Shown here in pieces: positions 6,347 through 58,657 of a DNA stretch of 64,000 nt (position 1 is the first letter of the stretch; each line of letters opens with the position of its first letter). The DNA is taken from the sequence record OR062947.1; one strand, given 5' to 3'. The notes under the pieces are model-generated. The model ran no database searches. It was not told the DNA's origin and worked only from the letters and a program-made list of their open reading frames with translations. Origin of the DNA: Escherichia phage 348Ecol098PP. Position numbers and translations under genes: made by a program.

Positions 6347-6376
6347 TGTACAAACTCTTCCGATGATGATACTATA
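6346..6376 (+). promoter_or_regulatory. early promoter (GTGTAC variant box)
   Basis: gtgtac at 6346, tactat about 18 nt downstream. Confidence 0.4.
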
Positions 6377-6403
6377 CCTTTATCAACCACAGGAGAAACC
6401 TAA

Positions 6404-7118: not shown

Positions 7119-7164
7119 CTTATCAGCTAAATGACCTAACGTCCGTAAGACAGAGGAAAATATT

Positions 7165-7911
7165 ATGTTGTCAAATAATAAAATTAACAAAATCAATCGT
7201 CGTCTTGACCACACCAGAGCTTCTGCGAAGAGACGCTCTAAGGATTTTAACTTAGACTTTAATTACCTTAAAAACATTCTTGATCAAAAGGTCTGCGCTT
7301 ACTCAGGTGAATCTTTTAATAACTCTGTTGAAGGTGAGAAATTATCCTTAGAACGTTTTAATAATGATATCGGCTACATTAAAGGTAATGTTATCCCAGT
7401 TAAGAAAAAATATAACACGGCTCGTTCTGATTTAACATTAGAAGAACTTATTGAAAAACGTGATGCCATTGCAAGACGTATCGCTAATCCTTCTGCCCGT
7501 AAAGTAGAGAAACTTAATCTCGACGAGAAGAAATGGGCCCAAATTAAAAAGGTTTATGGTACTATTTTAAAAATCCGAGCAAAACGTGAAAATCGTGTTA
7601 AGCATATGGCGAACATGATGAAAAATCAACCTTTATCTAACGAATCTAAACTTAGAATTGTTGCTTTGAAAGCACGCATTAATGGCTCACATCAAGCAGA
7701 AGGCCATGAACTTACTAAACTCAACGTTCTTCTTAAAGGCTCTGACTGGAAAACTAAAACTAAATTAACTGACGCTGAATCGCTTTTCGATACATATGAT
7801 AAAGTTATCCAAGGTCTGCAACGTTTTGAAAAGATTGGTTTCATTGGTAAATTAAAATTGAAACGTGGCTTACCACTTAGCGCATCATTATTCCAACTGA
7901 TTAAAGGTTAA
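7165..7911 (+). CDS. srd: Srd-like protein (similarity to rpoD)
   Basis: 248 aa basic protein directly upstream of dda.1/dda; size and position match T4 srd. Confidence 0.6.
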   Translation: MLSNNKINKINRRLDHTRASAKRRSKDFNLDFNYLKNILDQKVCAYSGESFNNSVEGEKLSLERFNNDIGYIKGNVIPVKKKYNTARSDLTLEELIEKRDAIARRIANPSARKVEKLNLDEKKWAQIKKVYGTILKIRAKRENRVKHMANMMKNQPLSNESKLRIVALKARINGSHQAEGHELTKLNVLLKGSDWKTKTKLTDAESLFDTYDKVIQGLQRFEKIGFIGKLKLKRGLPLSASLFQLIKG

Positions 7912-11809: not shown

Positions 11810-11860
11810 GTTTACTTCTCCTCTGGATTTGGTATTATATCCATATCAACCAGAGGAGAA
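11810..11860 (+). promoter_or_regulatory. early promoter with 10-bp inverted repeat spanning -10 to SD
   Basis: gtttac at 11810; tctcctctgg (11817-11826) is the reverse complement of ccagaggaga (11850-11859); tattat -10 between them. Confidence 0.5.
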
Positions 11861-11864
11861 TAAT

Positions 11865-12389
11865 ATGTTAGTTTACCGCGTAGAACGTAGTTTTTGTACT
11901 CAACGTGAATCATTACCAGGAATTGCTATCAAAGACGGTAAAGCCGTCAGAATTTGGGAAACCTCTTGGAATAAAGAACCTCGTTCGCCATACGGTTGGT
12001 CGGGCACCGACAACTCTGAAGAAACATGGGAGTTCCTTGATAAGCATGGAATACTCTCAGGTAACTTCTACCATCATGGCGACAACTATAATGTCCCTAA
12101 TCGTCCTACAGTAAATGAAGACAAACTCCTTGAACAAAATATCTTAAGATACTATAGAATTGATCACTCATTTGAATTGAGTGAAGATTGGGCCCAAGGG
12201 TTCTATTTTGGATTTGAAAGTGTTGACGCGGTTTATGCATGGTTTGATGACCAGGTGGATGTTGAACTCTTGAAAGCTAAAGGATACTACATCGCGGTCT
12301 ATGAAGCGCCTGATTTCATCCTCGGAAGTTGTCAATTAATGTTCAGACGTTCATTGGCAGAACAAGTTGATTTTATTTTGCTAAAATGA
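11865..12389 (+). CDS. hypothetical protein
   Basis: ATG at 11865 after cagaggag SD; 174 aa. Confidence 0.5.
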   Translation: MLVYRVERSFCTQRESLPGIAIKDGKAVRIWETSWNKEPRSPYGWSGTDNSEETWEFLDKHGILSGNFYHHGDNYNVPNRPTVNEDKLLEQNILRYYRIDHSFELSEDWAQGFYFGFESVDAVYAWFDDQVDVELLKAKGYYIAVYEAPDFILGSCQLMFRRSLAEQVDFILLK

Positions 12390-19246: not shown

Positions 19247-20194
19247 ATGTACAATATTAAATGCTTGTCCCAAGAAGAACAGTTAGAAGCTTATGGCCTG
19301 GTTGAATCAGGCAAATGGACTCGTAAAGAAATTGCCGATTACTTCGACATTTCAACAGATACTCTTCGTAAGATTGTTAAGAATTTTAAAGCAGAAGGCG
19401 TTGTCCCTGAAGCAAACGATGCCTCTTATGTAATCGAAGAAGTTCCAGAAAATGATGAACCTATTATCGGCGGACATCGTCCTGAAATCGTATGGAACGC
19501 GTCATCTAAATTTATTTCAATTATTGAAGGACGCGTAGCATACAATGCGACTCCATCAAGTCATGCAAATTTTGAAGAAATTAAAGCTAATCTGGTCGCA
19601 GGAAACCTTAATAAAGCTGTCGAACTTATTAACATCAAGAAAGCTATTAGTAAGTTTGTTGACGGTAATGTTGTTATTGAAGGTGGTAGTTTATTTTATC
19701 AAGGTATAGAGATTCGTTCTGGTCTGGTTAATCGTATTATTGATTCTATGGAAAAAGGCGAAGACTTTAAATTCTATCTACCGTTCCTTGAAAACCTGTT
19801 AGAAAACCCAAGCGAAAAAGCTGTACAACGTTTATTCGACTTCTTGGTTGCAAATGATATTGAAATCACTGAAGATGGGCATTTCTACGCGTGGAAAGTA
19901 GTTCGTAAAGATTATTTAGATTGCTATAGCGGTACATTTGATAACTCACCAGGTAAAGTTGTTTCAATGCCTCGTACTCGTGTTAACGATGATGATACAC
20001 AAACCTGCTCCCGTGGTCTACATGTTTGCGCTAAATCTTATATTCGCCACTTTGGTTCAAGCTCAGATAAAGTTGTGAAAGTTAAAGTTCATCCACGTGA
20101 TGTTGTATCCATCCCGGTTGACTATGGTGATGCTAAGATGCGCACATGTCGTTATGAAGTAATTTCAGACGTTACTGAATTGTTTGCAGAATAA
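19247..20194 (+). CDS. rIIB: rIIB protein
   Basis: 315 aa ORF immediately after rIIA; size and position as T4 rIIB. Confidence 0.85.
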   Translation: MYNIKCLSQEEQLEAYGLVESGKWTRKEIADYFDISTDTLRKIVKNFKAEGVVPEANDASYVIEEVPENDEPIIGGHRPEIVWNASSKFISIIEGRVAYNATPSSHANFEEIKANLVAGNLNKAVELINIKKAISKFVDGNVVIEGGSLFYQGIEIRSGLVNRIIDSMEKGEDFKFYLPFLENLLENPSEKAVQRLFDFLVANDIEITEDGHFYAWKVVRKDYLDCYSGTFDNSPGKVVSMPRTRVNDDDTQTCSRGLHVCAKSYIRHFGSSSDKVVKVKVHPRDVVSIPVDYGDAKMRTCRYEVISDVTELFAE

Positions 20195-20539: not shown

Positions 20540-21016
20540 ATGAAGGTGAAGATTGCTGACACTGCTCGGTATTCCCTGAGCCAAAATCCTGGCCAAAACA
20601 AAGAAGATGTAGTTCGACGTTGTAAGGTTGCGGTCTTTGCAGAGTATGTAGTAGCAAATTGGCTAGACGGATATGTTAATAAAGGTATTGAAGATGTAGA
20701 AGACCCGTACACGTATGCATGGGACGTGTTAGCTCATCCTAAATACTGCGGGTTGCGTGTAGAAGTCAAGACACACCAGATAGATTCTAAATGGATTTCG
20801 GTTACCACAGGATACAGCGGTGATTATCCAGGTGGTAATGGAATCAATATAGGGCCCTTCTTGAACCATCGAGTCGCAGATTGCATTATTATATTAGATG
20901 TCAAAGAAACCTCACCTGACGTCTTCTCTTATTCTATAAAGTTCGTGGGAGACCATGAAGACCTAAAGAAAATCGTCCGCAAGAGCAACTACAACGGGTG
21001 GTATCTTCAACTTTAA
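20540..21016 (+). CDS. hypothetical protein (start uncertain; denB region)
   Basis: ATG at 20540 just after the upstream stop; the track ORF extends to 20396 in an overlapping frame. Confidence 0.4.
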   Translation: MKVKIADTARYSLSQNPGQNKEDVVRRCKVAVFAEYVVANWLDGYVNKGIEDVEDPYTYAWDVLAHPKYCGLRVEVKTHQIDSKWISVTTGYSGDYPGGNGINIGPFLNHRVADCIIILDVKETSPDVFSYSIKFVGDHEDLKKIVRKSNYNGWYLQL

Positions 21017-21028
21017 TTTCATAAAAGT

Positions 21029-21064
21029 GTTTACAACTAAGTAGGACTATGATATAGTAGTCCT
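21029..21064 (+). promoter_or_regulatory. early promoter cassette (family B, aggacta...tagtcct palindrome)
   Basis: gtttacaactaagtaggactatgatatagtagtcctatc; 7-bp inverted repeat around the -10. Confidence 0.55.
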
Positions 21065-21084
21065 ATCTAAAAGAGGATAACATC

Positions 21085-21348
21085 ATGAAATTTAAATTTT
21101 TCTACGCAAAACATAAAGTAACAGGCGAATTTGTTTCAATGTACAACACTGCAGATGACGAAGGGATGATTTATACCCATTTGGGTCTATCTCATTGGGA
21201 CTCAGACGTGCCTTATATGTCATCTGAAGCCGAAATAACTCGTCTGGTTAATGGACATATGAACGACCATTTTAGTGTTATTCTTTCTAAAGACCTTAAA
21301 GAGGTTATCAACAAAGGATATATGGAACTCGCGGAAGTTGAGATATGA
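21085..21348 (+). CDS. hypothetical protein
   Basis: 87 aa; aaaagagga SD. Confidence 0.5.
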   Translation: MKFKFFYAKHKVTGEFVSMYNTADDEGMIYTHLGLSHWDSDVPYMSSEAEITRLVNGHMNDHFSVILSKDLKEVINKGYMELAEVEI

Positions 21349-21538
21349 GCTCTAAAATGTGGATCGGAATATGGTTGCTTAGTATCCCTATGATTTGTAT
21401 AGTATTTTCAATTGTATTGAGGTACTTATGAAAAATGCACTTATTATTGTACTAAGAACAATTTGTGATACGGGTTTTTACATCGCATGTTCGTTCACTG
21501 GATCATGGTTGGCTTTAACATATTTTAATGTAATTTAA
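21345..21538 (+). CDS. two tiny overlapping hydrophobic ORFs (28 aa at 21345-21431 and 36 aa at 21428-21538), tentative
   Basis: ATGA-coupled mini-ORFs encoding hydrophobic peptides; no independent support. Confidence 0.2.
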
Positions 21539-21540
21539 TT

Positions 21541-21578
21541 GTTTACAACAAGGTAGGATTATGGTATAGTAGTCCTAC
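21541..21578 (+). promoter_or_regulatory. early promoter cassette (family B)
   Basis: gtttacaacaaggtaggattatggtatagtagtcctac. Confidence 0.5.
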
Positions 21579-21598
21579 TGAAACATGAGGAACACAAA

Positions 21599-21799
21599 AT
21601 GGCTAAGCTTTTTAAAGATGTTGAAATTGGTGAAAAATTTGTCCTGAATAATGGTCAGCAGCTTATTCGTGTAGCTTCTATCGCCGGACAAACTCATAAC
21701 TGTATCGCCCCAACGTGTTGGACTCGATTCTTTATTGAAGATGACACTGAATGTTTAACTGTTGAAGAGCTTTTTGAACGTTCTGATATAGCCGAATAA
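21599..21799 (+). CDS. hypothetical protein
   Basis: 66 aa; catgaggaa SD. Confidence 0.5.
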   Translation: MAKLFKDVEIGEKFVLNNGQQLIRVASIAGQTHNCIAPTCWTRFFIEDDTECLTVEELFERSDIAE

Positions 21800-21801
21800 A
21801 A

Positions 21802-21837
21802 TTGTACAAACTCTTGAGAGCAGAGTATAATGCTCTC
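21802..21837 (+). promoter_or_regulatory. early promoter cassette (family D, gagagca-tataat-tgctctc)
   Basis: ttgtacaaactcttgagagcagagtataatgctctc; near-identical copy at 52535. Confidence 0.55.
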
Positions 21838-21875
21838 ATGGATTACAAAAACATTAATCAATTGAGGAAATTAGC

Positions 21876-22322
21876 ATGTCCAAATATTTAACTCGTAAAG
21901 ACCTTCTGGCAGTTGGCGGTGAAGTTGTTGCAGTAGTTCGTAATGGCGAATACGGTTCTGAAGTTTCTAAAGAGTTTCGTTCTCGTGAAGGTTTTTACTT
22001 CTTTGTTAAAGGTTCATCTGACTGGCGTCAAGTTGCAGCACGATTCTTTGTAGGACGTCAACGTTCTAAACAAGGGTTGGATGCAATTCTTTCTCACATT
22101 CGTCAAGGCCGTTCGCAACTAGCCCGTACTATGGGCACTAACAATATTGAATATGATGTAATCTTTGTTGCAGCTAAGAACATGAAACCCCTGACTACTG
22201 GTTATGGTAAAGGACAATTGGCTCTGGCATTCACTCGCAATCATACATCAGAATATCAAACACTCACTGAAATGAACCGTCTTCTGGCAGATAATTTCAA
22301 ATTCGTTCTGCAGAGTTACTAA
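21876..22322 (+). CDS. ndd: nucleoid disruption protein Ndd
   Basis: 148 aa; GFYFFVKGS...[27 protein letters not shown]...[42 protein letters not shown] matches remembered T4 Ndd. Confidence 0.8.
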
Positions 22323-22330
22323 TTTATACG

Positions 22331-22362
22331 GGCCTATTAAGTTAGGCCTTTAATTTATTTTT
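22331..22362 (+). terminator. possible terminator
   Basis: ggcct attaagtt aggcc hairpin followed by a T-rich run (tttaatttattttt). Confidence 0.4.
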
Positions 22363-22374
22363 GAGGTAATTAAA

Positions 22375-22524
22375 ATGGTAGCATGGATTATTGCATTGCT
22401 GTGTTGGTCGTTTTTATTCGTTAACACTTTAGTTACAGGCGAAACAACAGTATTTCAACAGGCTGTGTCACAAGGTACCTTAGCGGTCTTAGCTCTTCTT
22501 AACGTATTAAAAGGCGAGCAATGA
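22375..22524 (+). CDS. small membrane protein (ac-like position)
   Basis: 49 aa hydrophobic ORF below the track cutoff; gaggtaat SD. Confidence 0.35.
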   Translation: MVAWIIALLCWSFLFVNTLVTGETTVFQQAVSQGTLAVLALLNVLKGEQ

Positions 22525-22661
22525 TTAAGAAAATCTTAGCAGGAGCCTTCGGGCTCTTGTTTTTGCTTACGGTTCTGTACTACGGTGTGATGTTTGGGCT
22601 AATCCAAGTAGTGCTTTTCATTTCAGATGTTATAATGGTTATTCGTTCATTAATATGGTGA
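22521..22661 (+). CDS. small membrane protein
   Basis: 46 aa hydrophobic ORF, ATGA-coupled; contains the terminator-like hairpin gagccttcgggctc and the putative middle promoter for 52. Confidence 0.3.
   Translation: MIKKILAGAFGLLFLLTVLYYGVMFGLIQVVLFISDVIMVIRSLIW
22611..22636 (+). promoter_or_regulatory. putative MotA-box middle promoter upstream of gene 52
   Basis: agtgctttt (MotA-box-like) then about 12 nt then tataat at 22631-22636. Confidence 0.35.
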
Positions 22662-22665
22662 AAAT

Positions 22666-23991
22666 ATGCAATTGAATTCTCGTAATCTAAAAAGTATTAT
22701 TGATAACGAAGCCTTAGCATATGCGATGTACACCGTTGAAAACCGTGCAATCCCAAACATGATTGATGGATTTAAGCCGGTTCAACGTTTTGTGGTTCAT
22801 CGTGCGTTAGATTTGGCTCGTGGTAATAAAGAAAAATTTCATAAACTTGCGTCAATTGCAGGAGGTGTTGCAGATTTAGGTTATCATCATGGCGAATCTT
22901 CTGCACAAGATGCAGGTGCATTGATGGCTAACACATGGAACAACAACTATCCGTTGTTAGATGGCCAAGGCAACTTTGGTTCTAGAACAGTCCAAAAAGC
23001 TGCAGCATCTCGTTATATTTTTGCTCGTGTAAGTAAAAATTTCTATAACGTATATAAAGATACTGAATATGCTCCAGCTCATGAAGATAAAGAACACATT
23101 CCACCAAAATTCTATCTTCCTATTATTCCGACAGTTCTTTTGAATGGTGTCTCTGGTATTGCAACCGGTTACGCAACAAATATTCTGCCTCATAGTTTTA
23201 AATCAGTCAAAAAGGCTGTATTACAAGCTCTTCAAGGTAAAAATGTCACTAAGCCAAAAGTTGAATTCCCGGAATTCCGTGGTGAAGTACATGAAGTTGA
23301 TGGGCGTTATGAGATTCACGGAACATATAAGTTCACATCTCGCACTCAAATGCAGATAACTGAAATCCCATATAAATTCGACCGTGAAACGTATGTGAGT
23401 AAGGTTCTTGACCCGTTGGAAGACAAAGGTCTAATCTCATGGGAAGATGATTGTGGTGAACACGGCTTTGGGTTTAAGGTGAAGTTCCGTAAAGAGTACT
23501 CGCTTCCTGATGATGAAGAGCTACGTCATGAAAAAATCATGAAAGATTTTAGTCTCATCGAACGTCGTTCACAAAACATCACAGTGATTAATGAAAAGGG
23601 TAAATTAGCAGTCTATGATAACGTAGTGGACTTAATCAAAGATTTTGTTGAAGTCCGTAAGACTTACGTTCAGAAACGTATTGACAACAAAATCCTTGAA
23701 TCTGAAAAAGCATTTAAACTGGCTTTTGCTAAGGCACACTTCATCAAAAAAGTTATTACAGGTGAAATTGTGATTCAGGGCAAGACCCGTAAAGCTTTGA
23801 CTGAAGAGCTAACACAAATCGAAATGTATAAAGAACATGTCGATAAACTGGTAGGTCTTAACATCTTCCATATCACTTCCGACGAAGCACGTAAACTAGC
23901 AGAAGAAGCTAAAGCTAAGAAAGAAGAAAATGAGTATTGGAAGTCTACTGATGTGGTAACTGAGTATGTTAAAGATTTGGAGGCTCTATGA
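22666..23991 (+). CDS. 52: DNA topoisomerase II medium subunit (GyrA-like) gp52
   Basis: 441 aa; N-terminus ...AYAMYTVENRAIPN.IDGFKPVQR... (GyrA-like catalytic region). Confidence 0.9.
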   Translation: MQLNSRNLKSIIDNEALAYAMYTVENRAIPNMIDGFKPVQRFVVHRALDLARGNKEKFHKLASIAGGVADLGYHHGESSAQDAGALMANTWNNNYPLLDGQGNFGSRTVQKAAASRYIFARVSKNFYNVYKDTEYAPAHEDKEHIPPKFYLPIIPTVLLNGVSGIATGYATNILPHSFKSVKKAVLQALQGKNVTKPKVEFPEFRGEVHEVDGRYEIHGTYKFTSRTQMQITEIPYKFDRETYVSKVLDPLEDKGLISWEDDCGEHGFGFKVKFRKEYSLPDDEELRHEKIMKDFSLIERRSQNITVINEKGKLAVYDNVVDLIKDFVEVRKTYVQKRIDNKILESEKAFKLAFAKAHFIKKVITGEIVIQGKTRKALTEELTQIEMYKEHVDKLVGLNIFHITSDEARKLAEEAKAKKEENEYWKSTDVVTEYVKDLEAL

Positions 23992-41568: not shown

Positions 41569-41604
41569 TGTACAATCAGATAGGGTTATGTTATAGTAGC
41601 CCTA
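41568..41604 (+). promoter_or_regulatory. early promoter cassette (family B)
   Basis: gtgtacaatcagatagggttatgttatagtagccctatcaa. Confidence 0.5.
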
Positions 41605-51126: not shown

Positions 51127-51188
51127 TGGTTTACAAACACCAAGGAAGGTGTTACTATGGCTTTTATCAACAACACGAGGAGAAAATT

Positions 51189-51689
51189 ATGAATATGCAA
51201 TTGATTACTAACGATATGGTCGTAACCGCTTTTGGAGACACAACTGACGGAATCCGGGTCTTTAAGAAAGGACGTCCAGTTGGTTATCTTACGGACCTAC
51301 GTGTTACACTAGCGAAAAATGCTAAAAAGAAGTTAAAGCAAAAGGAATATTCAACACGTTACACCGAAGAGAAACGTGAAGCGATGCCGGAAGCAGTTAA
51401 TGCCATGGTAGAATTTCTTCAAAACAATTTGACTAAATATGACGCTAATGTGTTCATTAATATTAGTCAACCAAACGTACATATCGCAGGTATAAAATTC
51501 TACATTATTTGCGACCCTCTTACCGACAAATTCAACCGTCTCGGAATCTCAAGTCCATATCATACAGCAGAAGAGTTGTGTGTATTGTTTGAATCGTACA
51601 AAATCCAGTGTGATGGTTTGAAAACCGTTCTTATCAATGGATTGTCCCGAGATGAAATCATTGAGATTATTAAAACATGCTTAAAGTAA
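51189..51689 (+). CDS. alc: Alc (transcription termination on cytosine-containing DNA)
   Basis: ATG at 51189 with cgaggag SD; 166 aa; position between 63 and the spanins as in T4. Confidence 0.65.
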   Translation: MNMQLITNDMVVTAFGDTTDGIRVFKKGRPVGYLTDLRVTLAKNAKKKLKQKEYSTRYTEEKREAMPEAVNAMVEFLQNNLTKYDANVFINISQPNVHIAGIKFYIICDPLTDKFNRLGISSPYHTAEELCVLFESYKIQCDGLKTVLINGLSRDEIIEIIKTCLK

Positions 51690-52033: not shown

Positions 52034-52320
52034 TTAAATTAACCGCAGTTGTATTATCTATTGGCATTTTGGCTGGATGTGCCCAGGATGTGCCCTTAAG
52101 CCCTAAAGAAACTTTACATCCGCCATGGCCAGAATCTATTGTTGAATATAACCAGAAATGGCAAGTAAAGGTTATTGATGGTAATCCGTGGGTTGGAATG
52201 CCATTTGAAGACTCTCAAGAATTTCGTATCTGGTTAAACGACGTAAAAAGATATGTACATGACCAGAAGACTATGTTATGTTATTATCGTAGTGGTTTAA
52301 AAGAGGAAAAATGTCAATGA
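52030..52320 (+). CDS. o-spanin (outer-membrane lipoprotein, PseT.2-like)
   Basis: 96 aa; signal peptide with lipobox LAGC; ATGA-coupled to the i-spanin. Confidence 0.6.
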   Translation: MIKLTAVVLSIGILAGCAQDVPLSPKETLHPPWPESIVEYNQKWQVKVIDGNPWVGMPFEDSQEFRIWLNDVKRYVHDQKTMLCYYRSGLKEEKCQ

Positions 52321-52535
52321 CTAAAGAACAGCATGAATACATTAAAGGGCTTATCTATGAATCTGAAATGGCGGCTATGATTTATGGACGCCAGATTCAA
52401 CGATTAGAATCTTTGCCTCCGACTAATGACCGCTTGTTAGTTCAGTCTCGTGCTAATCTGAAAAATGAATATCAGAATAAGTGGGCAGTAGCGACTAAAG
52501 CTCTTCATGAGTATATTGAATCTTTAGTAAAATAG
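52311..52535 (+). CDS. hypothetical protein
   Basis: 74 aa ORF. Confidence 0.45.
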   Translation: MSMTKEQHEYIKGLIYESEMAAMIYGRQIQRLESLPPTNDRLLVQSRANLKNEYQNKWAVATKALHEYIESLVK

Positions 52536-52569
52536 TTTACAAACTCTCGGGAGCAGAGTATAATGCTCC
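52535..52569 (+). promoter_or_regulatory. early promoter cassette (family D)
   Basis: gtttacaaactctcgggagcagagtataatgctcc; palindrome ggagca/tgctcc around tataat. Confidence 0.55.
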
Positions 52570-52592
52570 TATGGATAATTGAGGAAATCTAA

Positions 52593-52891
52593 ATGAAAAC
52601 ATTACTAGAGAATTACATCAAACGGTCTGATGAGTATATTGATATCTGCCGTGGAATGTCACTTGTCGATTATGACAAAGATGCAGCAAAGGCACTAGAT
52701 GAAGCAGGTAAAGCTCTTCGTAAAGCTGCTAAAGAAAAAGGGTTGGATTTGCAACAACTCAAAAGTCATATGATTAAATTTATTTCTTCAAACGTTAGAA
52801 GTACGTCAATTAATAAAAACGTTGCTGAAATTAATAAAGACCGGCGCGAGCATAACATTCGTATTCTTGAAACTTTCTTAGGAATAAAATA

Positions 52892-52892
<1 letters not shown>
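52593..52892 (+). CDS. hypothetical protein
   Basis: 99 aa ORF. Confidence 0.5.
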
Positions 52893-53978
<1,086 letters not shown>

Positions 53979-53979
<1 letters not shown>

Positions 53980-58587: not shown

Positions 58588-58627
58588 GTTTACTTTGGTA
58601 CAGGTTATGTTATTATAGACCTGTACC
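58588..58627 (+). promoter_or_regulatory. early promoter with 8-bp inverted repeat flanking -10
   Basis: gtttac at 58588; ggtacagg ... cctgtacc flanking tattat. Confidence 0.5.
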
Positions 58628-58657
58628 AACAAACAACTTAAACATCTGGAGAATAAA

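Follow-up and report, generated by a model that had tools for sequence, protein, structure and literature searches.

Closest described systems

The promoter-early stem-loop (PeSL) is an element class of T4-type phages, described in RB49 and phi1 (Arbiol et al. 2010, PMC2839356) and later in T4/PST and KVP40/nt-1 (Comeau et al. 2014, PMC4122927). In the 2010 paper, a PeSL opens with the stop codon of the preceding gene, set in AT-rich sequence, and continues with a sigma-70 promoter, a stem-loop, and a Shine-Dalgarno (SD) sequence followed by ATG, and the stem-loops are described there as overlapping the -10 box and as containing G-T pairs. Its authors proposed termination or attenuation and demonstrated terminator activity with a single G/C-rich stem-loop of RB49 (PMC2839356); Comeau et al. 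(2014, PMC4122927) illustrate PeSL-mediated exchange with the ndd.4/ndd.5 region of T4/PST. Here we examine two copies of a promoter cassette, which we call family D, within a 64,000-nucleotide (nt) stretch of DNA from Escherichia phage 348Ecol098PP (record OR062947.1; 'the window'). Copy 1 occupies positions 21802-21838, upstream of ndd, and copy 2 positions 52535-52571. Over 21000-23000 the window is 100% identical to Escherichia phage ST0 (MF044457 / NC_041990), a T4-like myovirus of the genus Mosigvirus, species JS09, in whose record each position is the window position plus 43399; we refer to the phage as ST0 below.

The promoter and RegB site of the T4 member of this family have already been studied experimentally (Durand 2006, PMC1702504). 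The 'motB RNA' of that work is a model substrate for RegB and ribosomal protein S1, in which positions 5 and 7 are U and positions 6 and 8-11 are A. Both the 5′ end of the motB promoter transcript, assigned in the legend to Fig. 5 from a reverse-transcriptase stop, and the RegB cut were observed in T4 in vivo. By the same account, of 30 intergenic GGAU sequences examined in T4 RegB cut only 2, RB69 is reported to have one GGAU site that is cleaved, and GGAU is tolerated with a strict tail only; none of the cleaved T4 RNAs has C at position 7 (PMC1702504).

What we add to the PeSL papers is modest: covariation statistics for the stem, a bias of its wobble pairs towards the sense strand, a fixed geometry of 8 stem positions and 8 loop nucleotides laid into the free positions of the promoter, and the juxtaposition of a RegB-type site. 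The accessible portions of those papers (PMC2839356, PMC4122927) yielded no covariation analysis, sense-strand wobble bias or adjacent RegB-type site, and the word 'compensatory' is absent from the 2010 text (PMC2839356).

A stem that encloses the -10 hexamer

Both copies are near-consensus sigma-70 promoters (TGTACA-17-TATAAT in copy 1, TTTACA-17-TATAAT in copy 2) and differ at 6 of ~36 positions. A 30-nt pattern spanning the two, with up to 3 mismatches allowed, matches the window at these two sites alone and gave 0 matches in 100 shuffles. The original prediction, made from the letters of the window, had placed near-identical copies at 21802 and 52535 and had described a repeated promoter cassette upstream of ndd; the sequences lie at those positions, and the description agrees with both the sigma-70 consensus and the Pfam match of the ndd product (Table 1).

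In each copy, a stem of 8 positions and a loop of 8 nt enclose the -10 box. Copy 1 pairs TGAGAGCA with TGCTCTCA in 8 Watson–Crick pairs around the loop GAGTATAA, the innermost pair using the last T of TATAAT. In copy 2, CGGGAGCA and TGCTCCTA form 7 pairs, of which 6 are Watson–Crick and one is G·U (G·T in DNA), and the terminal position is a C·A mismatch. The inverted repeat around TATAAT is thus genuine as predicted, though its length is 8 positions rather than the 6-7 bp first proposed. Folded as RNA, the 32-nt cores reach -13.5 kcal/mol (z -3.0) for copy 1 and -11.9 kcal/mol (z -2.3) for copy 2, against -7.2 and -5.4 kcal/mol when folded as DNA. Of the pairs that differ between the copies, one is compensated (A-T to G-C), a second survives as a wobble (G-C to G-T) and a third no longer pairs (T-A to C-A), so that the earlier claim of compensatory arm changes between them holds for a single pair and was otherwise overstated.

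The left arm occupies the promoter spacer (~-23 to -16) and the right arm the discriminator (-7 to ~+1), with the transcription start placed at the usual 7 nt past the -10 hexamer. No other part of the promoter than spacer and discriminator is free of sequence constraint; the arms sit there, and the -10 hexamer becomes the loop. The complete cassette runs in the order upstream stop codon, sigma-70 early promoter, stem-loop, GGA(G/U) with an A-rich RegB-type site, then SD and start codon.

Covariation indicates selection on the pairing

Homologues were collected from IMG/VR by three exact-pattern scans in which the arms were left free, giving at least 180 loci. From these we built a gapless covariation alignment of 21 distinct family D members from T4-like phages, whose 8 stem positions amount to 168 cells. 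In this alignment 98.2% of cells pair, compared with 89.4% in column shuffles, and none of 500 shuffles reached the observed value; the covariation score was likewise attained by 0 of 500. Double-sided change occurs at 4 of the 8 pairs (GC/CG/UA, GC/AU, AU/GC and GC/GU/AU). When the 3′ arm is slid by 1-3 columns, pairing falls to 36-54%, with no double-sided pairs at four of the six slides and 2 at slides +2 and +3. RNAalifold recovers the same stem without being supplied with the helix. At the orthologous ndd site, TGAGAGC/GCTCTCA in ST0 stands against TGGGGTC/GACCCCA in other phages, a difference of three fully compensated pairs. Arm sequences vary across members (GAGAGC, GGGAGC, GGGACC, GGGGTC), and complementarity alone is kept.

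Beyond the alignment, 5-7 pairs (Watson–Crick or G·U) form among the 7 outer stem positions in each of the ~30 distinct family D cassettes among the matches listed. The stem is absent from ~120 unrelated sequences with the same -35 or -10 context among the IMG/VR matches listed, a negative control drawn from the scan with TACAAACTCT-N11-TATAAT, whose matches were mostly unrelated. The substitution pattern shows that the stem pairing is under selection. This agrees with what the original prediction had proposed, although its two-copy evidence, with a single compensated pair, was thin; a lack of covariation across a larger set of homologous promoters, which it named as a refuting outcome, is not what the 21 distinct homologues show.

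Wobble pairs point to a single strand of sense polarity

The non-Watson–Crick cells of family D are distributed unequally between the strands. Read on the sense strand they comprise 19 G·U and 3 mismatches, whereas on the antisense strand they comprise 3 G·U and 19 A·C. As a control for bias, detection was repeated at every promoter-like site in all loci with G·U and A·C accepted equally. Among the matches listed, the stem at its fixed geometry was found in 33 distinct promoters, versus 0-3 at shifted registers, and the stems of these 33 contain 232 Watson–Crick, 28 G·U and 2 A·C pairs, counted per sequence. Given this asymmetry, and given that complementarity rather than arm sequence is kept, the pattern indicates that the selected structure is a single strand of sense polarity.

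The molecule is most likely read-through RNA. Early promoters on the same strand lie upstream of both copies, at 21030 and 21542 for copy 1 and at 51130 for copy 2, and a plus-strand terminator scan found no terminator-like site between 21542 and copy 1 and a single weak match, at 51561 within a coding region, between 51130 and copy 2. These upstream promoters, with so few plus-strand terminator-like sites in between, make RNA the natural candidate.

Membership in the PeSL class and gene shuffling

Judged by its sequence-level features, the cassette is a PeSL of the subclass whose stem-loop overlaps the -10 box. Besides the promoters and the folding energies and covariation of the stem given above, each copy has an upstream stop codon in AT-rich sequence (TAA 3 nt ahead of the -35 hexamer in copy 1; TAG abutting it in copy 2 and in most homologues, aaaaTAGTTTACA) and GAGGAAA followed by ATG. 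The element is also repeated: ST0 carries four family D copies, and matches occur in 408 phage records, T4 included. Family D cassettes stand in front of at least 6 unrelated genes and behind at least 8. An Rfam search of window positions 20900-22400 at E up to 1 returned no match.

Relatives differ by insertions or deletions next to the cassette. In IMGVR_UViG_2706795394_000001 (locus L030, positions 330-900), a 114-aa open reading frame (ORF) lies between two cassettes where ST0 has one; the cassettes are direct repeats 412 bp apart, with ndd on one side and the 66-aa ORF homologue on the other. Such a topology would be expected if a PeSL mini-circle had been inserted or excised. L003-type phages have an extra 160-aa ORF right after the cassette at the 52.5-kb locus. 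The ORF at 53080-53979, which follows this locus, is polynucleotide-kinase-like (pseT) by its position in the T4 gene order. As a second role, the ~60-90 bp of conserved cassette could provide a homology patch for the insertion, deletion and exchange of small early genes.

Family D shares with the described PeSLs its layout, its multiple copies, its position between small early ORFs and the flanking indels between relatives. The phage group differs, being Mosigvirus here, as does the stem, (T/C)G(A/G)G(A/G)(G/C/T)CA compared with Gn-loop-Cn in RB49 and AGNA-loop-TCNT upstream of the promoter in PST. Family D is further distinguished by its fixed 8 stem positions and 8-nt loop with no U-tract; terminator activity is known for the one RB49 stem-loop alone.

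RegB-type sites and the T4 motB copy

The single family D copy of T4 lies upstream of motB (TTTACAAACTCTTGGGACCAGAGTATAATGGTCCCGTGGAGTATAAAA; NC_000866 ~7150-7215, locus L181 700-760), where the stem is followed by GGAGTATAAAA. Within this, GGAGUAUAAAA agrees position by position with the 'motB RNA' model substrate of RegB and S1. All 29 of 29 distinct family D cassettes have GGA(G/U) 1-2 nt past the stem and then an A-rich tail, scoring 7-10 of 11 against the RegB/S1 consensus used here, GGAGRAYARAA (PMC1702504, PMC3014915). The ST0 sites are GGAUUACAAAA (copy 1, 9/11) and GGAUAAUUGAG (copy 2, 8/11), both of the GGAU type and one with C at site position 7. ST0 encodes RegB (gp266, PF10715, E 3.5e-69). 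With 2 of 30 GGAU sites cut in T4 and one cleaved GGAU site in RB69, we regard RegB cleavage of the ST0 sites as just plausible on their sequence. T4 motB and the ST0 copies thus have in common a homologous cassette, the stem geometry and the position of the GGA motif, and differ in having GGAG there and GGAU in ST0; the available part of the T4 study treats the RNA past the start site, with no discussion of a hairpin around the -10 box (PMC1702504).

In the T4 motB copy, GAGTATAA forms the hairpin loop around the -10 box and recurs within the RegB site GGAGTATAAAA. Its transcript thus opens with a -10-like TATAAA at ~+6 to +11, which may be a sigma-dependent promoter-proximal pause element.

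A probable role in read-through transcripts

Overall, we consider it probable that family D is a PeSL-type cassette whose stem acts at the RNA level in read-through transcripts; each single role within that reading, as attenuator, as 3′-end barrier or as RegB context, is held with much less confidence. The hairpin would form in RNA from upstream early promoters that reads through the cassette. The cassette's own transcript would begin only where the right arm ends and could not form it, which would confine the hairpin to read-through RNA. There it could serve as an intercistronic 3′ structure that partially attenuates transcription and/or blocks 3′ exonucleases, and such a barrier would protect the upstream cistron once RegB or RNase E cuts just downstream. 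The outcome would be an upstream cistron insulated from the downstream one. We favour partial attenuation and/or an exonuclease barrier because neither stem is followed by a U-tract (the tails are AUGGAUUAC and AUGGAUAAU (GCUCUCAUGGAUUAC)) and because the terminator scan omits both cassette sites, yet lists canonical terminators nearby; a canonical intrinsic terminator was rejected for want of the U-tract. Elsewhere the phage does use ordinary intrinsic terminators, as two canonical terminator-like plus-strand hairpins followed by T-tracts show; they lie between ndd and a topoisomerase subunit gene, at 22330-22359 and 22538-22571, and one has a CTTCGG (UUCG-type) loop.

Known hairpins resemble this arrangement in part. 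T4 genes e, soc, 49 and I-TevI each have a late promoter inside a hairpin, and in early read-through RNA this hairpin sequesters the ribosome-binding site. Family D shares with them a promoter inside a hairpin that read-through RNA can fold and the promoter's own RNA cannot; its right arm, however, is the discriminator rather than the SD sequence, ending 25 nt before it in copy 1 and 9 nt before it in copy 2, so that translation would not be directly masked. Intercistronic stabiliser hairpins and 3′ barriers like repetitive extragenic palindromes occur in polycistronic bacterial mRNAs, and like family D they are short, GC-rich, free of a U-tract, located between cistrons and beside an endonuclease site. 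The family D hairpin differs in being overlaid on a promoter, and a stabilising effect is our proposal. The coliphage N4 virion RNA polymerase uses hairpin promoters read as single-stranded DNA, with 3-nt loops; the likeness is a strand-specific hairpin at a promoter, whereas family D is a consensus duplex sigma-70 promoter.

Several points weigh against this reading. The missing U-tract makes efficient intrinsic termination doubtful, and transcription across the cassette, its start site and any 3′ terminus at the hairpin are all inferred; our literature search found no relevant T4 Term-seq or transcript 3′-end map. The G·U counts are per sequence rather than per independent event; counted as events, we estimate ~6-8 for G·U and 1-2 for A·C. 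The majority of homologues come from patterns in which ACAAACTCT and/or AGAGTATAAT was fixed, so the sample represents a single sub-family. Sequence data cannot separate RNA from sense-strand single-stranded DNA, and the RegB-like sites of ST0 belong to the GGAU variants that were seldom cut in T4.

Alternative explanations

The pairing could be functionless, an accident of common ancestry among copies of one promoter. The window copies alone, with their one compensated pair, and the close relationship of many family D homologues would allow this, but at least 5 independent double-sided substitutions preserve pairing over four pair positions, the slid registers gain few or no such pairs, the ~120 same-context sites lack the stem and a second, sequence-unrelated family has the same geometry (below); we give this explanation very little credence. 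The original prediction had envisaged a DNA palindrome clamping the -10 box, as a cruciform or as the target of a dimeric factor, and this part of it was not borne out. A hairpin or cruciform extruded from supercoiled DNA, or from single-stranded replicating or recombining DNA, might aid melting of the -10 box or mark the cassette as a recombination hotspot; the DNA hairpins of copy 1 do exceed shuffles in stability on both strands, and single-stranded DNA of sense polarity is compatible with the sequences. A cruciform, however, needs both strands paired, and on the antisense strand the wobbles become A·C (19 of 168 cells; 28 versus 2 in the control). An 8-bp stem with an 8-nt loop at -5 to -7 kcal/mol is also a poor candidate for extrusion, the left arm remains duplex in the open complex under the established sigma-70 model, and the promoters already carry consensus elements, all of which leave DNA structure improbable. 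For an operator at which a dimeric phage or host protein would bind across the -10 box and regulate the promoter, one can cite the dyad symmetry, centred on the -10 region and positionally conserved. Its half-sites nonetheless vary as the family D arms do (TAGGACT in the other family) with complementarity alone kept, which argues against base-specific recognition by a protein; over half of the members have G·T wobbles that break the dyad in DNA, and we identified no candidate binding factor. Both the dimeric operator and the cruciform were rejected on arm variability and strand-asymmetric wobbles, the operator being the more improbable of the two by a clear measure.

At the RNA level, the hairpin might instead discriminate between mRNAs by their promoter of origin, either by hiding the RegB site or by leaving a protected 3′ end after a RegB cut. 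In a masking switch, ACUCU 5′ of the left arm would pair with GGAG(U) 3′ of the right arm and conceal the site in read-through RNA; own-promoter transcripts, which have no left half, would expose it at their extreme 5′ end, and RegB, polynucleotide kinase (PNK) and RNase E/G would destroy mRNAs according to their origin. The read-through RNA of T4 motB folds with ACUCU:GGAGU at -26 kcal/mol (z -4.2), the predicted probability that GGA is unpaired in 9 GGAG-type cassettes is 0.07 in read-through RNA compared with 0.62 in the own transcript, and secondary structure is reported in the literature to protect GGAG from RegB. Among 25 GGAU-type cassettes, both ST0 window copies included, the contrast is in turn weak or reversed (0.31 versus 0.48 overall; 0.27 versus 0.05 for ST0 ndd), and the change from G to U at site position 4 is uncompensated in ACUCU. 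ACTCT was fixed in most search patterns, moreover, and the two free variants (ACTCA) weaken the pairing instead of compensating; the basis of the switch is thermodynamic prediction. We rejected RegB masking in ST0, where predicted accessibility is unsupportive for either copy, and keep it as a rival for GGAG-type cassettes, where we think it unlikely; discrimination by promoter of origin is equally unlikely. An alternative hairpin of ACTCT with AGAGT, which has the left arm as its loop and excludes the stem around the -10 box, was also discarded, being disfavoured by minimum free energy, centroid and RNAalifold predictions, with its ACTCA variants uncompensated. If discrimination by origin were true, GGA(G/U) would lie exposed in own transcripts, 2-3 nt from the triphosphate at their 5′ end; RegB and PNK would turn these transcripts into 5′-monophosphate substrates of RNase E/G, and one gene would give two mRNA populations with different programmed lifetimes, which the placement of the arms in spacer and discriminator would make possible.

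Other promoters with and without the stem

The plus strand of ST0 has 30 strict early-promoter-like sites, of which 11 carry the full stem around the -10 box and 2 more a stem of 6 bp. A second family, TTTACA...TAGGACTA-tgaTATAG-TAGTCCTA, has the identical geometry, with 8 stem positions, a loop of 8 nt and the final T of the -10 box paired, and shows covariation of its own (A-U to G-C) and sense-strand U·G wobbles. The sequences thus indicate that the design is not peculiar to family D. Many other ST0 early promoters keep a right-arm-like TAG(T/A)C(C/T)TAtcaa that lacks a complementary left arm.

Three further sites in the window involve promoters of related form. At 11811-11865, an early promoter (TTTACT-16-TATTAT) lies inside a long hairpin whose outer arm CUCCUCUGG pairs with CCAGAGGAG, which serves the next gene as its SD sequence. 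The fold of read-through RNA reaches -23.1 kcal/mol (z -4.0), and RNA starting past the promoter is essentially unstructured (-0.9 kcal/mol). By analogy, this looks like the 'translate only from own promoter' logic of T4 lysozyme, on an early promoter. At 58589-58630, another TTTACT-16-TATTAT early promoter has a 9-bp stem (GGTACAGGT/ACCTGTACC) around its -10 box (-16.5 kcal/mol from spacer to +12). The site at 6347-6395 joins a family D 5′ half (TGTACAAACTCT) to an unrelated, stemless 3′ half with TACTAT as its -10 box and may be a chimeric or recombined cassette. Many of the IMG/VR loci among L038-L150 contain a highly repeated promoter-like CCCGCT(A/T)TACAAACTCTGC(C/T)(G/A)(C/T)CTATGCTATAAT...AGGAGA...ATG before many different genes; this motif of uncultivated viral contigs has no stem, is unrelated to family D and was matched via TACAAACTCT alone.

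Table 1. Positions of the family D cassettes, their flanking ORFs and the second-family promoters (window coordinates unless marked as ST0 record).
Feature	Position	Strand	Remark
Copy 1, upstream 66-aa ORF	21599-21799	+	
Copy 1, TAA stop of 66-aa ORF	21797..21799	+	3 nt ahead of -35 hexamer
Copy 1, -35 hexamer TGTACA	21803..21808	+	17-nt spacer
Copy 1, left arm TGAGAGCA	21815..21822	+	from folding, covariation, RNAalifold
Copy 1, loop GAGTATAA	21823-21830	+	
Copy 1, -10 hexamer TATAAT	21826..21831	+	in loop; last T is first base of right arm
Copy 1, right arm TGCTCTCA	21831..21838	+	3′ end is putative transcription start
Copy 1, RegB/S1-like site GGATTACAAAA	21840..21850	+	9/11 to consensus; predicted cut 21841/21842
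Copy 1, SD GAGGA and ndd ATG	21864..21878	+	SD, then ATG at 21876
ndd ORF	21876-22322	+	Pfam PF06591, E 4.9e-89
Copy 2, upstream 74-aa ORF	52311-52535	+	
Copy 2, TAG stop of 74-aa ORF	52533..52535	+	abuts -35 hexamer (TAGTTTACA, as in most family members)
Copy 2, -35 hexamer TTTACA	52536..52541	+	17-nt spacer
Copy 2, left arm CGGGAGCA	52548..52555	+	
Copy 2, -10 hexamer TATAAT	52559..52564	+	in loop
Copy 2, right arm TGCTCCTA	52564..52571	+	
Copy 2, degenerate RegB-like site GGATAATTGAG	52573..52583	+	8/11; overlaps into SD
Copy 2, SD GAGGAAA and ATG	52581..52595	+	ATG 52593 of 99-aa ORF
Copy 2, downstream 99-aa ORF	52593-52892	+	two genes upstream of pseT
Four family D copies of ST0	ST0 record 19519, ~65.2 kb, ~95.9 kb, ~158.8 kb		
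ST0 copies outside the window	ST0 record 19519-19544 (L182), ~158812-158845 (L183)		both TGAGAGCA/TGCTCTCG, then GGATAATAAA(A/C)
Second-family promoters	359-395, 21030-21065, 21542-21577, 41569-41604		stem motif at 382, 21053, 21565, 41592

Implications for T4-like phages

The authors of the PeSL papers assumed a structure at the RNA level, and the accessible portions of those papers contain no demonstration of it from sequence that we could find; the strong G·U bias reported here favours placing the selected structure in RNA. Intergenic repeats of this kind in RB69/JS09-type phages can be labelled as PeSL-type early-promoter cassettes and not as a new regulatory palindrome. Read as PeSL-type cassettes acting in read-through RNA, they offer testable ideas on how T4-like phages insulate dense early cistrons and time the decay of early mRNA. 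The cassettes also mark likely recombination joints, which makes them useful for comparing and engineering therapeutic T4-like phages.

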